A stretch of DNA of 8,279 bases from a virus. Its lineage: Duplodnaviria > Heunggongvirae > Uroviricota > Caudoviricetes. Position 1 is the stretch's first letter. Each line of letters begins with the position of its first letter. Position numbers and translations under genes: made by a program. The stretch is from positions 1-8,279 of IMG/VR virus record IMGVR_UViG_2548876852_000004, one strand, 5' to 3'. The notes beneath the pieces are model-generated. The model had not been told where the DNA came from. It saw nothing but the letters and a program-made list of their open reading frames with translations, and made no database searches. Positions 3,952 to 7,676 of the stretch are shown here, piece after piece.

Positions 3952-4707
3952 TTACCCGTTATCTCCTGTCGTTATTTTCTGTATGACATCACGATGCTTA
4001 TTAATTTCCCGCAGCGCGGCGCATAAGCGCTCCCACTTCTGAACCTGACCTTTTGCCCGGCGCAGCTCGCGGTTAGCCACATGCAGCGATGGTAAAATCA
4101 GACCATCCGGATGCTTTCTGATGAACGACGACTGTGACTGCACTGTGACCGCCACACTTTCAGTTTTAATTTCTTCCTGTGTTTCCGCTTCCCGGACTGG
4201 TAACGCAGCACCTGCTGGCTGAGGAAAGGCCTTACCATCATTTTTCGTTACCGGCGCGGCTTTCGGATCTGCTGGTAAATTCCCCCCCGACATGCAGTAA
4301 CGAAATTTACCGTTCTGATTAACGCGTGCCAGCCGCCCCGTTGCGGTTACCACCGCCAGCGTGGAAGCAACCTTGCGAGTACTGACGCCGAACTTACCCG
4401 CCAGTTCCTCACACGTTTTAGCACCATCCTGACCGATAAACTCAACCATCATGTCTGCGGTAACTTTTGGAGCGACCTCTTCGGTTACCACATCCGGCGC
4501 TTCAGGTTGTAGTGCCTGCCCTTCGGTTACCCCGGCTTCACCTTCGACAGCCAGAAACCAGGTGTGACCCGTTTTATCAACAACGCCATTTTTTTTGAGT
4601 TCCCACAGTTCGTTAAGAACTTCTTCACGGCTGATATCAAGCCGCGCCGCCAGTTCAACAGAATTGGCTTTTCCCATCGCTTTCAGTGCATGCAATACAG
4701 TTTCCAT
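3952..4707 (-). CDS. hypothetical phage protein (251 aa) with two winged-helix-like segments separated by Pro/Ala/Glu-rich linkers
   Basis: ATG at 4705-4707 is preceded by SD GAGGT (spacer about 9). Two HTH-like segments: N-terminal (SVELAARLDISREEVLNELWELKKNGVV) and central (KTCEELAGKFGVSTRKVASTLAVVTATGRL). Sits immediately downstream of the replication genes. Confidence 0.65.
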   Translation of the reverse strand: METVLHALKAMGKANSVELAARLDISREEVLNELWELKKNGVVDKTGHTWFLAVEGEAGVTEGQALQPEAPDVVTEEVAPKVTADMMVEFIGQDGAKTCEELAGKFGVSTRKVASTLAVVTATGRLARVNQNGKFRYCMSGGNLPADPKAAPVTKNDGKAFPQPAGAALPVREAETQEEIKTESVAVTVQSQSSFIRKHPDGLILPSLHVANRELRRAKGQVQKWERLCAALREINKHRDVIQKITTGDNG

Positions 4708-4732: not shown

Positions 4733-5464
4733 TCACATACCCTGACGTCCAACGTTTGACCGCCAGCTCTCCCAGTTAAAATTCACCCAACGACCACCAT
4801 TCATGGTCATACGGTCCATCACCCGATCTCCGAGGAGTGTGCTCATCGCTGCGTGATTCAGGTTCGTCAGCATTCCGACACTACGCATCGAAGCCGTTCT
4901 GCGGTCGACTATCTGGTTCAGCGTGACCTGCTCGTTGCGCGTATCCCGCTGCATGCCAATTTCATCAAGGACCAGAAGGTCAACTCCACAAAGCTCCTGT
5001 AAAAATTTTTCCCCGGACTGGCCGTTGTCGTAGCCGTCATGCAACACGCTCATGACATCGGACACGGTGACGATAATCACGCTTCTCCCCTTCGCCATCA
5101 GCCGATTGCCAATCGCTGCTGCCAGGTGATTTTTACCGGTACCAGGTTTACCGCTGAACACGAAGTTTGTACATCCGGTCATCAATTCATCGGCAATGGA
5201 TTTCGCCTGGCTCAGAGCATGGCGCTGACCGTCGTTCTGCACCCGGTAGTTCCCGAATGAGCACTTCCTGTGAAGCGGCTGGATGCCCGCACGGTTCAGG
5301 ATTTTTTCAACCCGCACCTGATGATTCAGGCGGTTAATCTCCTCGCTGCGTTTTCGTCCTTCAGCAAGTTGCCATTCCCGCCACTCCTCCACCGTCCGGT
5401 ACGGTGGAACCGCCCCCCTGTGGTGCAAGTCTGCGAATACGTTCAAGAACCCCAACTGCCGCAA
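4733..5464 (-). CDS. DnaC-like replicative helicase loader (AAA+ ATPase, IstB/DnaC family)
   Basis: Walker A GKPGTGKNHLAAAIG and Walker B LLVLDEIG. N-terminal region aligns with the DnaC N-terminus as I recall it (IQPLHRKCSFGNYRV...GQRHALSQAK). First in-frame start is TTG at 5462-5464 with no strong SD, so the exact start is uncertain. Confidence 0.85.
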   Translation of the reverse strand: MRQLGFLNVFADLHHRGAVPPYRTVEEWREWQLAEGRKRSEEINRLNHQVRVEKILNRAGIQPLHRKCSFGNYRVQNDGQRHALSQAKSIADELMTGCTNFVFSGKPGTGKNHLAAAIGNRLMAKGRSVIIVTVSDVMSVLHDGYDNGQSGEKFLQELCGVDLLVLDEIGMQRDTRNEQVTLNQIVDRRTASMRSVGMLTNLNHAAMSTLLGDRVMDRMTMNGGRWVNFNWESWRSNVGRQGM

Positions 5465-5480
5465 TGTTTTTCATGACACG

Positions 5481-6443
5481 TCACCCCCTGAATCCCGGCG
5501 GTATTTCAGTGTCCGGTTCAGAAATGTGATTCACGCAACGCTGCGCGGGCGAACGCCCCAGGCGGATAACCAGTTCATCCCATTTTTCCCGGAGTTTTGC
5601 CGGACTCATGATGTTTTTTACCCAGAACGAATCCCGCTGGAGACGCCCAAACATTTCACAAATTTGTCTGTGAGTTCTGCCATCCAGCATCCGCATTGTC
5701 CGCACGTCATTGGCCCATGCAGTCCAGTTGGGTTCTTTCGGTCTCGTGATCTCGCCATCATCGCTGGCCGCCTGCTCGTAAAGACTCACGATTCGTCCCC
5801 AGATCCACTGTGCGCACACCAAATCTTCCTGACTTCCCCACTGGCGTTTTTTCGCACTGAACACAACCGCGTCAGGGTGTCGGGTTAAAAAATCCTGTTC
5901 AGCCGTCTGCGGGTCCGGTTGCGAAGCGTCCGGACAAGAAGATCTTTTATCTGACGGATCAGGTTTTAATACTGACGGATCGGGGTCAATCATCGCCCCC
6001 CTAATCGGCAGTTTGTTATCAACAGTTGATCCATCAAAATTTGACGGGTCAACCGTTGAGGGGGCAATATTTGACGGGTCAACTGTTAACGGGTCATTTT
6101 TTGCCGGGCTAATTTTTCTTTTCGGTTTATATGACTCACGCGCCGCTGCCGCAGCTGCTTCGAGTTTTTCCACATTAAGCCGATAGATATTGCTTACATT
6201 ACGCCCACCGACCTTACGCTCTTCCTTCGTCAGCCAGCCCTCTTTCGCCAGTTCTGCAATAGCCGATTTCACTGTGGATTCACTTCTTGCACCGATCTGA
6301 CGCCGGATAGTTTCAATGGCAGGCCATGACACGCCCTCGTCATTGCTGTAGTCTGCAAGACGGGCCATAACCGCCACCCTGGATAAGATCATGCCGGTGA
6401 AGGCGCACCCTTCCCAGACAAGACCATGAAGCTTGCTGCTCAT
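5481..6443 (-). CDS. lambda O-like replication initiator
   Basis: C-terminal domain matches the lambda O C-terminus as I recall it (WANDVRTMRMLDGRTHRQICEMFGRLQRDSFWVKNIMSPAKLREKWDEL vs lambda WANDIRLMRERDGRNHRDMCVLFRWACQDNFWSGNVLSPAKLRDKWTQL). N-terminal HTH region and a repeat-containing linker. ATG at 6441-6443 is preceded by GGGGG; the tracked ORF starts at an upstream GTG (6458). Confidence 0.85.
   Translation of the reverse strand: MSSKLHGLVWEGCAFTGMILSRVAVMARLADYSNDEGVSWPAIETIRRQIGARSESTVKSAIAELAKEGWLTKEERKVGGRNVSNIYRLNVEKLEAAAAAARESYKPKRKISPAKNDPLTVDPSNIAPSTVDPSNFDGSTVDNKLPIRGAMIDPDPSVLKPDPSDKRSSCPDASQPDPQTAEQDFLTRHPDAVVFSAKKRQWGSQEDLVCAQWIWGRIVSLYEQAASDDGEITRPKEPNWTAWANDVRTMRMLDGRTHRQICEMFGRLQRDSFWVKNIMSPAKLREKWDELVIRLGRSPAQRCVNHISEPDTEIPPGFRG
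6017..6133. repeat. putative phage replication origin inside the O-like gene: three 11-bp palindromic iterons at 30-bp spacing plus an AT-rich tract
   Basis: TCAACAGTTGA (6019-6029), TCAACCGTTGA (6049-6059) and TCAACTGTTAA (6079-6089), the last two each preceded by TTGACGGG, followed by the AT-rich stretch 6094-6133. On the coding strand they encode repeated TVDPSN peptides, matching lambda's ori-within-O arrangement. Confidence 0.55.
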
Positions 6444-6465
6444 AAAACCCCCGAACACCGTGCTT

Positions 6466-6891
6466 TTAGTGCATCACCACAGCATTCCCTGCCGGGCCGC
6501 CGCGATTCATCTGGTCATACAAAACAACCGCTGACGCAACAAAATCATCGACATCCTTCACCAGCCGATCCCTCCGTTCGACGATCTCACGGTAATATTC
6601 AGAACTGTGGCTGCGCATACGGGCCACCAGCAAAGGCGGCATCGCCTTTTCGATCGCCGGTAACAGAGCCTGCATTTTTTCAACAGCATCAGGGGTGTCT
6701 TTATCCAGCCAACGGAAAATTTTCTGGGTATTACGGGCCAGGGCTTCCGGATGGCTGTCGTCATACAGTTCCGGGAACGTCATTCCCAGCTCGAAATACG
6801 CTTTGGTAATTTTCGCAGCCGGTACTTTTTCGCCGTCCGGATGCGCCCAGACATTCATCGCCATGCGGATGTGTTCATGCTTGATTTTCAT
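6466..6891 (-). CDS. YdaT-like (CII-position) early regulatory protein
   Basis: 140-aa ORF sitting between the Cro-like gene and the O-like gene, the position held by YdaT in Rac-type prophages. ATG at 6889-6891 is preceded by SD GGAG (spacer 8). It overlaps the Cro-like stop by 17 nt. Family assignment is from memory and position. Confidence 0.55.
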   Translation of the reverse strand: MKIKHEHIRMAMNVWAHPDGEKVPAAKITKAYFELGMTFPELYDDSHPEALARNTQKIFRWLDKDTPDAVEKMQALLPAIEKAMPPLLVARMRSHSSEYYREIVERRDRLVKDVDDFVASAVVLYDQMNRGGPAGNAVVMH

Positions 6892-7156
6892 GAATCAAGC
6901 TCCTAGAAAGTGGTTGTGTTAACGTTTTGGTATCTTCCAGCTCGGGCCAAATATTCATCCAATCAAAAGGCCTTAGTTGCTGACGTGTAACTTCACCATT
7001 ACTGGCTCGCTCAATAAGGACACATAACGATGCCCCTAACACTTGACCTTTACTCAATGCCTTTCTTAGATAACCGATGCTGGTACCACACTCGCATGCA
7101 AACATACGCTGTTCATCTGACGAAAGAGAATTGAGAAATATTCTTAATTCTTCCAT
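6875..7156 (-). CDS. Cro-like HTH regulator (YdaS-like)
   Basis: 93-aa ORF divergent from the repressor. HTH-like segment CGTSIGYLRKALSKGQVLGASLCVLIERASNGEV. Consensus SD AAGGAG sits 5 nt upstream of ATG 7154-7156. Confidence 0.7.
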   Translation of the reverse strand: MEELRIFLNSLSSDEQRMFACECGTSIGYLRKALSKGQVLGASLCVLIERASNGEVTRQQLRPFDWMNIWPELEDTKTLTQPLSRSLIHENQA

Positions 7157-7181: not shown

Positions 7182-7250
7182 AGAATACCCACAGGTAAAT
7201 AAAAGTCAATACCCACAGGTTGTTTACCTTGCGGTAATCGCATCTATTAT
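7182..7250. promoter_or_regulatory. OR-like divergent promoter/operator region
   Basis: Two copies of ATACCCACAGGT(A/T) at 7185-7198 and 7209-7222, 24 bp apart. Candidate rightward-early promoter on the minus strand: -35 TTGACT (7204-7209), 16-nt spacer, -10 TATTCT (7182-7187). Candidate repressor promoter on the plus strand: -35 TTTACC (7223-7228), -10 TATTAT (7245-7250). The repressor ATG at 7257 has no SD and lies about 7 nt past the -10, suggesting a leaderless mRNA. Confidence 0.55.
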
Positions 7251-7256
7251 TTACCT

Positions 7257-7676
7257 ATGGACAAATATGAATTTAGACGACAGCAACTCATCAAAATTCG
7301 TGATGAGAAATGCGATGGTAAAGCGGTTAACGTGGCCAGAAAGATCGGGCGCGAGCCTTCTTATGTATCAAGAATGTTGTACCCAGAGGGGAAAAAGGGA
7401 AAAAAACGGATCGCTGATGATATGGTGGAGATTATCGAAGAGTCCTTTGGGTTACCCCGGGGATGGATGGATGGTATCGTTTCATCATCAACGAACACAG
7501 CCTCCAGTTATGAAACAAGGGTTCTAACGCCACGACAACGTATTTTTTTAGATCTCTTAGACGAACTGCCAGAAAGTGAAGCGGATAAATTATTAAAAAC
7601 TCTTGAAGAGAAAAAACAGTATTACAATATGATCTACGAAGAAATCCGTAAAAAGAAAGCACAAAACGCATCATAG
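7257..7676 (+). CDS. CI-like prophage repressor, short form without a peptidase domain (RacR/DicA-type)
   Basis: 139-aa ORF with N-terminal HTH (AVNVARKIGREPSYVSRMLYPEGKK). C-terminal LDELPESEADKLL resembles the DicA C-terminus as I recall it. Divergent from the Cro-like gene and flanked on both sides by the same operator motif. Confidence 0.7.
   Translation: MDKYEFRRQQLIKIRDEKCDGKAVNVARKIGREPSYVSRMLYPEGKKGKKRIADDMVEIIEESFGLPRGWMDGIVSSSTNTASSYETRVLTPRQRIFLDLLDELPESEADKLLKTLEEKKQYYNMIYEEIRKKKAQNAS

Follow-up and report, generated by a model that had tools for sequence, protein, structure and literature searches.

Palindromic repeats within an O-like initiator gene probably mark the replication origin of a Rac/Sp10-like lambdoid prophage

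Introduction

An origin of replication inside the initiator gene is the ordinary lambdoid arrangement, and in annotated ori-lambda iterons and then an AT-rich region lie midway along O (PMC7466680). The locus considered here lies in an 8,279-bp stretch of prophage DNA (hereafter, the window) that spans an immunity and replication region and includes an O-like gene with internal repeats of an undescribed type. Are these repeats an origin for the initiator that the gene encodes, do they serve another purpose as DNA, or are they merely the imprint of a repetitive peptide? An initial annotation had proposed a lambda-like layout with the origin inside O, and our analysis bears out that layout. Sequence comparisons indicate that positions 5941-6104, within the linker-coding part of the initiator gene, probably serve a Rac/Sp10-like lambdoid prophage as its replication origin. 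The repeats are genuine and non-random, lie in a predicted disordered linker, are under selection as DNA, and co-segregate with the N-terminal domain of the initiator. Very probably they form a lambda-style origin in a Rac/Sp10-like E. coli prophage, as the sites to which the initiator binds.

Results

The gene carrying the repeats encodes a protein of 320 amino acids that matched PHROG 391, "replication initiation O-like" (E 2e-115). RefSeq annotates a 99.9%-identical copy as a coding sequence of the same length, and the longest open reading frame begins at a GTG at 6458. The gene and its parts are as follows.

5481..6443, minus strand: gene of the O-like replication initiator, 320 aa, ATG start at 6443 (open reading frame list, PHROG 391)
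6132..6443, minus strand: N-terminal winged-helix domain, aa 1-104 (Pfam HTH_36, 27.8 bits, cut-off 25)
5916..6125, minus strand: predicted disordered linker, aa 107-176, holding all repeat elements (pLDDT ~30)
5553..5912, minus strand: lambda-O-like C-terminal domain, aa 178-297 (BLASTP to lambda O; model pLDDT 67-90)
5484..5546, minus strand: DnaT-like C-terminal tail, aa 300-320, ending ...VNHISEPDTEIPPGFRG (NCBIfam DnaT profile)

AlphaFold modeled the N-terminal domain with pLDDT 73-89 and the topology H-H-H-H-beta-hairpin-H. A profile search of this domain against PDB sequences returned nothing significant (best E 0.2), and a fold search was used instead. The nearest PDB folds were dimeric winged-helix regulators of the MarR, ArsR, and PadR types (E 2e-3 to 2e-2, target TM 0.45-0.63). 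The N-terminal winged helix is presumed to be the iteron-binding module. The C-terminal part (aa 153-300) aligned by BLASTP to lambda O residues 145-277 with 35% identity (E 6e-26), and tblastn matched the C-terminal domain to lambda (E 1e-18) and to many O proteins. Because the N-terminal domain had no alignable similarity to that of lambda O by BLASTP and matched Pfam HTH_36 instead, the protein is a mosaic relative of O rather than a full-length orthologue. Its tail matched positions 159-179 of the 179-position NCBIfam DnaT profile (E 0.004), as well as the C-termini of the PDB DnaT chains 2ru8, 6aep, and 9zbt (E 0.01-0.03). The repeats had been placed in the linker of the initiator, and this placement holds, with the linker sitting between two confidently modeled domains.

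Three palindromic 11-mers spaced 30 bp apart had initially been described. These sites are present at 6019, 6049, and 6079, although the third is imperfect and the full array has five to six 11-bp palindromes of the general form TCAA-NNN-TTGA with a 15-bp period.

6019-6104, no strand assigned: iteron array, six 11-bp units in 15-bp steps (repeat and motif searches)
6019-6029, plus strand: unit TCAACAGTTGA, perfect 5+1+5 palindrome
6034-6044, plus strand: unit TCAAAATTTGA, perfect palindrome
6049-6059, plus strand: unit TCAACCGTTGA, perfect 5+1+5 palindrome
6064-6074, plus strand: unit GCAATATTTGA
6079-6089, plus strand: unit TCAACTGTTAA, imperfect palindrome with one mismatch
6094-6104, plus strand: unit TCATTTTTTGC, degenerate
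5986-5996, plus strand: possible lone degenerate unit TCAATCATCGC (six-lineage alignment and unit tables)

Three units of the array are perfect 5+1+5 palindromes and two others are off by a single base. The last entry in this list is weakly assigned as a further unit within the window, and relatives carry TCAACCATTGA in its place. At position 6064, the majority allele is T (65 of 80 copies), giving TCAATATTTGA, and the window holds the minority allele G, which we call the weaker one.

Chance does not readily generate such an array. The sites at 6019, 6049, and 6079 are the sole matches in the window to the 11-mer motif with at most one mismatch, and none of 200 shuffles of the window had at least three matches (shuffle mean 0.28, observed 3). 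Tandem Repeats Finder and a repeat search gave the 15-bp period in addition to the 30-bp period. The perfect 5+1+5 palindromes at 6019, 6034, and 6049 are separated by exact 15-bp steps, and an equally spaced triple of perfect palindromes occurred in 0 of 400 first-order Markov simulations. This triple test took the place of a lattice statistic based on any 4+3+4 palindrome with at most one mismatch at 15-bp steps, which was dropped as too permissive (null mean 3.4, observed 5). We also compared the array with iteron plasmid origins of the RepA, RepE, and pi type, as defined by direct repeats of 17-22 bp about two helical turns apart, DnaA boxes, and a tandem winged-helix Rep protein. The array differs from these in having 11-bp units at 15-bp spacing and an initiator modeled with a single winged helix. 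By eye, its flanking GATC repeats agree with a DnaA box at just 5 of 9 positions, and the resemblances of TATCAACAGTTGA to an IHF site and of GATCTTCTTGTCC to an oriC 13-mer were each too weak to claim.

An AT-rich stretch had also been described after the iterons. The flanks of the array hold the following elements.

5941-5984, no strand assigned: GATC-repeat, moderately AT-rich element, candidate DNA-unwinding site (repeat family and alignment)
5951-5960 and 5972-5981: direct repeats CTGACGGATC (GATCCGTCAG in gene orientation), plus a GATC at 5941
6095-6133, no strand assigned: AT-rich stretch, T-rich on the plus strand, upstream of the array in gene orientation

The described stretch exists, and no 25-mer of the O gene is less stable than its segment 6109-6133, although the signal is weaker than in lambda (AT 76%, z = 2.4, versus AT 84%, z = 3.1). 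Read in the direction of the gene, however, the stretch precedes the array, opposite to lambda, and it is not conserved outside its lineage. The corresponding flank is mostly not AT-rich in other lineages (AT 0.33-0.60), and by this comparison the stretch at 6095-6133 is lineage-specific. The element at 5941-5984 was present in all 12 lineages examined (AT 0.56-0.67), in which two or three GATCC-initial repeats come after the TCA-N5-TGA units. Some relatives have a single GATCC repeat. Within this element, GATCCGTCAGTA is invariant in six lineages whose N-terminal domains are changed at over 50% of synonymous sites. Among 40-mers of the O gene, the least stable one (5936-5975) overlaps the element, and four GATC sites occur in 91 bp. 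Repeat spacing was 18, 21, or 24 bp, such that helical phase is not preserved. The element is on the side that corresponds to the AT-rich region of lambda, and 5941-5984 is a likelier unwinding site than 6095-6133. Its identity is nonetheless uncertain because both flanks are just moderately AT-rich (62-76%, versus 78-84% in lambda).

GATC-containing repeats are found in the unwinding regions of oriC, as its 13-mers, and of P1 oriR. The locus shares with both the presence of two or three GATC-initial direct repeats in the AT-richer flank of an initiator-binding array. It differs in that the oriC 13-mer has no similarity to these repeats beyond GATC and in that the spacing is not phase-conserved.

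Codon-level comparisons argue that the repeats are constrained as DNA and not as peptide. Between the window and an 87%-identical relative (L095), synonymous changes affected 29 of 98 codons in the N-terminal domain and 26 of 141 in the C-terminal domain, but only 1 of 53 in the linker (Fisher p 1e-5 and 8e-5). With the flanking domains pooled, 55 of 239 conserved codons were synonymously changed versus the single linker codon, where the altered base, at 6024, is the central N of a palindrome. Non-synonymous changes were commoner in the linker (9/62) than in the flanking domains (14/253). An independent lineage, represented by L004 and a Klebsiella phage, had 46/86 synonymous changes versus 4/48 in the linker (p 8e-8), with unchanged TCAAAATCTGA cores and variable 3-bp spacers. 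In a third lineage the depletion was weaker, having the same direction in 6 of 6 pairs and p < 0.01 in 3. It is because synonymous sites are frozen, strongly in two lineages and weakly in a third, that we attribute the pattern to DNA-level selection.

Variation among relatives was confined to the central N and the 3-4 bp spacers, leaving the unit cores invariant. Although the linker peptides diverge widely between lineages (STVD, SNFD, SKSD, SDSD), 12 lineages from Escherichia, Klebsiella, Erwinia, Serratia, Salmonella, and Enterobacter keep both the TCA-N5-TGA dyad and its 15-bp period. This persistence speaks for a function of the repeats as DNA rather than as a repeated peptide. As counter-evidence, polymorphism among 32 near-identical alleles showed no deficit in the linker (variable sites: 14 in 201 nt versus 16 in 315 and 17 in 447), and singletons occurred within the unit cores at 6019 and 6049. 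Half-site covariation across lineages was unclean, with positions 4/8 and 5/7 complementary in 57% and 40% of 47 crude units, and is not used as evidence. A scan of viral contigs recovered only copies with 99-100% identity, which are of little use for divergence tests.

The distribution of repeat types follows that of the initiator N-terminal domains. Related N-terminal domains go with related TCA-N5-TGA units, numbering from about 2 to 6 among relatives and gained or lost always in frame. Relatives with an unrelated N-terminal domain have their own iterons, including five copies of GGTCAAAATG at 23 bp, followed by short AT- or purine-rich repeats, and join the same C-terminal domain at approximately window position 5948. 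Across the sequences compared, repeat type co-segregates with the type of N-terminal domain. The idea of origin-like iterons inside the initiator gene is thereby supported at three levels, namely DNA-level selection, palindromic structure, and co-travel with the N-terminal domain, from which we infer origin activity. The combination of N-terminal domain and linker was found in 1518 of 5426 complete genomes, including O157 and other STEC strains.

Downstream of the initiator gene is a putative helicase loader, and a candidate promoter lies upstream.

4733..5474, minus strand: DnaC-like helicase-loader gene, frameshifted (NCBIfam PRK12377, Pfam IstB_IS21)
7182..7209, minus strand: pR-like promoter candidate, TTGACT-16-TATTCT (consensus scan, 9/12 positions)

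The loader scored 467.9 bits on PRK12377, a DnaC-related subfamily (cut-off 389), 298.6 bits on the DnaC equivalog PRK07952, under its cut-off of 357, and E 1.5e-19 on Pfam IstB_IS21. Alignment to intact relatives revealed an extra base in the C-run at 5413-5418 (plus strand), which causes a +1 frameshift, and the frame from the conserved MKNI start is not intact in the window. The run was shorter in 16 of 17 comparable loader copies, and RefSeq labels the near-identical copy in E2865 "frameshifted". The pairing of a lambda-type O C-terminal domain with a DnaC-like loader, as first annotated, is therefore present by homology but broken in the window, and it is not new. Sakai prophages Sp4, Sp10, and Sp12 of O157 have already been described with an O-type initiator followed by a DnaC-type loader (PMC2669165), a description that concerns the protein pairing. 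Transcripts from the pR-like candidate would cover the cro-like, cII-like, O-like, and loader genes and run across the repeats, although promoter-scan hits in the region were not above chance and the assignment is by position only.

Discussion

How does this locus compare with known origins? It shares with ori-lambda a position in the middle of the initiator gene, between the DNA-binding N-terminal domain and the C-terminal domain (PMC7466680), as well as repeats with an internal dyad, AT-richer DNA on the C-terminal side, and a homologous C-terminal domain (35% identity). It differs in having 11-bp units at 15-bp spacing rather than four iterons of 18 bp at 20-24 bp, and in an AT-rich part that is 62-68% AT with GATCC-initial direct repeats, compared to 78-84% AT in lambda. 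In lambda the partner is P; here it is a DnaC-type loader, and the initiator ends in a DnaT-like tail. The HTH_36 N-terminal domain and the dimensions of the units uphold the earlier expectation of an initiator specificity distinct from that of lambda.

The Stx-phage origins of 933W and P27 have six lambda-type iterons, and iteron number varies with O extended in frame (PMC7466680). Variable iteron number among relatives is a feature they share with this locus, but Stx iterons and O proteins are close homologues of those of lambda, and both the iteron sequence and the N-terminal domain family differ here. Gene 18 of phage L has six imprecise 11-bp repeats (TGTCCAACGGA), with the origin inferred from sequence alone (PMC8022706). 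P22 and phage L share with this locus short repeats of ~11 bp inside the initiator gene, but the repeats differ in sequence, and gene 12, a DnaB-type helicase, is the partner. Literature searches on oriJ/Rac, the Eru replication types of Stx phages, and O with DnaC-like loaders and iterons found nothing on this initiator family.

The alternative that survives best is that the repeats are a fossil, that is, an origin by descent that is non-functional in the window copy because the replication module has decayed. In agreement with decay, the DnaC-like gene has a +1 frameshift in both the window and E2865, an insertion sequence splits the nearby hok/sok locus, the allele at 6064 is the weaker minority one, and the phage collection held no isolated phage with the N-terminal domain at 60% identity or above. 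The frameshift and the nearby insertion mean that the window copy may be inactive. On the other hand, the O gene is intact in the window, and relatives lacking any loader gene (L095, L096, L098, SKA5, and L107) keep intact initiators and arrays, so host DnaC may suffice. Moreover, Sp10 is described as located at the Rac site with an intact RecE-type system, a repressor that lacks the peptidase domain, and a DnaC-type loader, and as excising, circularizing, and transferring to K-12 (PMC2669165). The locus resembles Sp10, going by that published description, in its DnaC-type loader and peptidase-less repressor. We regard a fossil origin in this copy as possible but doubtful.

It is improbable that the repeats bind the initiator yet act in regulation, such as autorepression of O at translation or transcription, copy-number control, or handcuffing, with the origin elsewhere in the prophage. 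Binding-site features alone cannot separate regulation from initiation, the flanks are just moderately AT-rich, and roles can differ among sites, as outer Stx-phage iterons can bind weakly and still be required (PMC7466680). Against regulation, the 8.3-kb window has no other sizeable tandem array, and the motif is essentially restricted to the O gene in 19 kb of near-identical prophage, clustering nowhere else. Furthermore, ori-lambda and the iteron and AT-rich blocks of sister N-terminal domain types occupy exactly the homologous position.

More remote still is another overlapping cause, whether an antisense gene (ORF 6013-6186, plus strand), a structured RNA, or a hot-spot of recombination where the modules join. 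Many relatives keep the antisense frame open throughout the array, and the junction at ~5948 is ~70 bp past the array. However, the limits of the antisense frames are not consistent, L108 has no such frame, and the palindromes automatically yield the antisense "STVDPS" peptide. We judged the ORF itself to be a by-product of the palindromes as well. An Rfam search had no match at the region, and recent recombination would lower non-synonymous differences too, yet these are raised. Finally, constraint on a repetitive linker of PSxxD pentapeptides without any DNA function would fit a 15-bp period of five codons, in-frame gain and loss of units, and the fact that homologues keeping the linker peptide necessarily keep the DNA repeat, but it is strongly disfavored by frozen synonymous sites amid amino acids that change faster than in the folded domains, by widely divergent lineage peptides over a retained dyad, by the predicted disorder of the linker, and by perfect DNA palindromes that peptide constraint does not predict.

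For the preferred reading, a replication origin within the initiator gene, we infer initiator binding, an unwinding site, helicase recruitment, and origin activity from sequence and models as follows. Expression of the O-like initiator would start from a pR-type promoter near 7200. Dimers of the winged-helix N-terminal domain would then bind the 11-bp palindromes TCAA(C/A)-N-(G/T)TTGA, palindromic units being expected for a dimeric winged-helix binder. Since the units are spaced 15 bp center to center (~1.4 helical turns), adjacent dimers would lie on nearly opposite faces of the DNA. The nucleoprotein complex would destabilize adjoining DNA, with the likeliest target being the GATC-repeat element at 5941-5984, at the position of the AT-rich region in lambda. 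The lambda-O-like C-terminal domain and DnaT-like tail may recruit host DnaB helicase, either by way of the phage DnaC-like loader or, if that loader is absent or broken, as in the window, by way of host DnaC. Counting against the preferred reading are the modest AT content of both flanks, the polymorphism of the linker among near-identical alleles, the variable numbers of units and of GATCC repeats, the unphased GATCC spacing, and the unclean half-site covariation.

A broader reading joins two parts: a widespread enterobacterial family of phage initiators whose origin layout differs from ori-lambda, with closely packed 11-bp palindromes at a 15-bp period and then GATC-initial repeats, and recruitment of host DnaB-DnaC through a portable DnaT tail. 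The tail would correspond to the last ~20 residues of the restart protein DnaT (...EPDxxIPxGFRG). It ends unrelated initiator types, is present with or without a phage DnaC gene after it, and is absent from lambda-P-paired relatives whose C-termini were inspected. We offer this joint reading tentatively and consider it rather unlikely to hold in full. The DnaT-like tail on the initiator is the part that is possibly new for helicase recruitment, and if both parts were true, the phage tail would point to the DnaT contact that hands DnaB-DnaC to DNA. The probable origin described here gives a defined and testable site for one of the commonest prophage replication modules in E. coli. It is useful for prophage annotation, for the construction of lambdoid replicons that are compatible with one another, and for deciding which "defective" prophages are still able to amplify after induction.

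Prophage setting and gene content

The DNA of the window comes from a Rac/Sp10-like lambdoid E. coli prophage, of which it is the immunity and replication region.

Features of the window (coordinates, strand, description)
455-649, minus, hok ORF
682-1770, plus, transposase ORF with an rve integrase core
1714-1880, minus, sok antitoxin RNA (Rfam, 111 bits)
3952-4707, minus, DUF1627 gene
4733-5474, minus, DnaC-like gene (PRK12377, 468 bits)
5481-6443, minus, O-like initiator
6466-6891, minus, YdaT/CII-like gene
6875-7156, minus, YdaS/Cro-like gene
7257-7676, plus, DicA-like repressor (139 aa; sole family match DicA, weak)

The O-like gene is 99.6-99.7% identical to O157:H7 copies and 99.9% identical to that of STEC strain E2865, where recE, recT, kilR, ralR, xis and int lie in its neighbourhood. 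Of 5426 complete E. coli genomes, 2647 match the gene in some part and 1518 have its N-domain plus linker at ≥ 80% coverage. The repressor had no Pfam match and no S24 peptidase domain was detected in it. The Sakai prophages Sp6, Sp9 and Sp10, which are not SOS-inducible, are reported to have a repressor without the peptidase domain (PMC2669165). Because the transposase ORF lies between the hok ORF and the sok RNA, the hok/sok toxin-antitoxin locus appears to have been split by an insertion sequence.

An array of palindromes with a 15-bp period in the initiator linker

The initial annotation had described three 11-mers 30 bp apart. A motif search recovered TCAACAGTTGA at 6019, TCAACCGTTGA at 6049 and, with one mismatch, TCAACTGTTAA at 6079; no further match was found in the window, and 0 of 200 shuffled windows contained three matches. 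The units are thus present, but repeat searches gave a true period of 15 bp, with further units at 6034 (TCAAAATTTGA, a perfect palindrome), 6064 (GCAATATTTGA, one base short of a palindrome) and 6094 (TCATTTTTTGC, degenerate). In 400 Markov simulations, no triple of perfect 5+1+5 palindromes set exactly 15 bp apart arose. The window allele at 6064 is in the minority, as 65 of 80 near-identical copies carry TCAATATTTGA. Among close relatives (loci L094, L095 and L096; proteins P0013, P0019, P0021 and P0023), whole 15-bp units have been gained or lost in frame, leaving about 2 to 5 units, which points to slippage or to unequal exchange inside the array. No account of a TCA-N5-TGA iteron family with a 15-bp period was found in the literature searched.

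As proposed initially, every repeat element lies within the linker of the initiator. A structure model predicted a confident winged-helix domain (residues 1-104), a disordered linker (residues 107-176, pLDDT ~30) and a helical C-domain (residues 178-297). The N-domain matches Pfam HTH_36, and its closest solved folds were dimeric MarR, ArsR and PadR regulators, while the C-domain aligns to lambda O residues 145-277 at 35% identity (E 6e-26). A plus-strand ORF at 6013-6186 (57 aa) was rejected as spurious: since the units are palindromes, its antisense peptide (STVDPSKFDGSTVEG...) is nearly the same as the sense peptide.

Selection acts on the repeats as DNA

Constraint on a repeated peptide was the alternative named in the initial annotation. 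We addressed it in a sharper form, using the fraction of conserved codons carrying a synonymous change in each region. Relative to L095, a locus 87% identical to the window, synonymous changes affected 29/98 codons in the N-domain and 26/141 in the C-domain, against 1/53 in the linker (p = 1e-5 and 8e-5). The sole linker change fell at the central N of a palindrome (position 6024), which is A, C, G or T among five alleles. Amino-acid changes were more frequent within the linker (9/62) than outside it (14/253). An independent lineage, comparing Shigella/E. coli L004 or SKA5 with a Klebsiella phage, gave 46/86 versus 4/48 in the linker (p = 8e-8), with variation confined to 3-bp spacers and the TCAAAATCTGA cores invariant. 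In a third lineage, from Erwinia and Serratia with lambda-P-type loaders, all 6 pairs pointed toward linker depletion, 3 of them significantly. Across 12 lineages, TCA-N5-TGA units in 15-bp steps were kept despite diverse encoded tetrapeptides (STVD, SNFD, SNID, SKSD, SKFD and SDSD). Recent recombination fails as a cause, as it cannot yield low synonymous and high non-synonymous change together. Taken together, synonymous depletion in three lineages, elevated amino-acid change and retention of the units over differing peptides indicate that selection acts on the repeats as DNA rather than through the peptide. Recent polymorphism shows no depletion in the linker.

For relatives that have another N-domain, homology stops at approximately window position 5948. 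These relatives (L005-L008, L011 and L012) have their own iterons, comprising five copies of GGTCAAAATG, a 23-bp-period array or four copies of GTGTCACT-N4-AGTGACA; between the iterons and the C-domain, which they share with the window, are short repeats rich in AT or in purines. Since different iterons accompany different N-domains joined to one C-domain, sequence comparison indicates that N-domain and repeats are inherited as a single specificity module, as likewise in lambda, phi80, P22 and phage L (PMC8022706).

Candidate unwinding element

The initial annotation had noted an AT-rich stretch after the iterons. The stretch exists (6095-6133) and contains the least stable 25-mer of the O-like gene. 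However, it precedes the array in gene orientation, whereas the AT-rich region of lambda follows the iterons, and the equivalent flank in other lineages is 33-60% AT, no different from the gene average. On the C-terminal-coding side, all 12 of 12 lineages have two or three GATCC-initial direct repeats in 56-67% AT DNA, and GATCCGTCAGTA does not vary among six lineages in which over half of the synonymous sites of the N-domain have changed. This GATC element (5941-5984) sits where lambda has its AT-rich region, and in the same place as the AT-rich repeats of sister module types. Based on the conserved repeats and equivalent position, 5941-5984 is our favoured candidate for the unwinding and helicase-entry site, at slightly better than even confidence. 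The upstream stretch is a doubtful candidate, and it is a little less probable still that neither serves. AT-richness of the candidate flanks is modest. GATCC repeats are spaced 18, 21 or 24 bp apart, so that helical phase is not kept, which argues against phase-dependent cooperative binding at the GATC element; P0019 has only one such repeat.

In two relatives from Salmonella and Enterobacter (L108:1501-2412 and L109:1501-2424), two GATC-initial repeats read (T/A)GATCCACAAG, both copies changing together in each lineage. Compared by eye with the DnaA box TTATCCACA, TGATCCACA in these loci agrees at 8/9 positions and GATCCGTCAG in the window at 5/9. Many relatives (L095, L099, L100, L101, L104 and L107) encode a Dam-type adenine methyltransferase one or two genes downstream of the initiator, which may be related to the conserved GATC repeats of the putative origin.

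Helicase loader

The gene downstream of the initiator is a clear DnaC relative, and the claimed pairing of an O-type C-domain with a DnaC-like loader is present, but the loader is frameshifted. One extra base in a homopolymer run at 5413-5418 (a +1 frameshift) puts its conserved MKNI start (5474) in a different frame from the gene body. The equivalent run is intact in 16 of 17 comparable copies, and RefSeq labels the E2865 copy frameshifted. The window's DnaC-like gene is probably a pseudogene, and its prophage copy may be inactive, although the frameshift could also reflect sequencing error or slippage. The same N-module is found with lambda-P-type loaders, DnaC-type loaders, no loader or primase-helicases; hence, the pairing is one mosaic state of several. 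It was previously described for Sakai Sp4, Sp10 and Sp12 (PMC2669165).

Proposed mechanism and the DnaT-like tail

We propose that the initiator would be made by transcription from a candidate pR-like promoter at ~7182-7209 (assigned by position only), and that its winged-helix dimers would sit on the palindromes. At 15 bp, or ~1.43 turns, adjacent dimers would lie ~150 degrees apart round the helix, a different geometry from lambda, where iteron spacing is about two turns. The initiator complex would melt the adjacent GATC/AT element, and the C-domain and tail would bring in DnaB with the DnaC-type loader. With the period and AT-rich side corrected, DNA-level selection and module co-inheritance support interpreting the linker element as a further example of the well-known lambdoid origins within the initiator gene.

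The initiator ends in 21 residues (...VNHISEPDTEIPPGFRG; 5484-5546, minus strand) that match DnaT, the restart protein, at its extreme C-terminus. This tail also occurs in L103 (POCJ13 gp16), L102 (Eeyore), L100 (SKA5) and L107, and it terminates initiators whose N- or C-domains are unrelated. It was not present at the C-termini inspected of lambda-P-paired relatives (L003, P0035 in L104 and P0037 in L105), and another relative, P0063, has the entire DnaT DNA-binding domain (PF17948). Published accounts describe the mechanism of DnaB-DnaC recruitment by DnaT as unknown (PMC11087952, PMC13377028). We consider the DnaT-like tail to be the most promising lead of this analysis.
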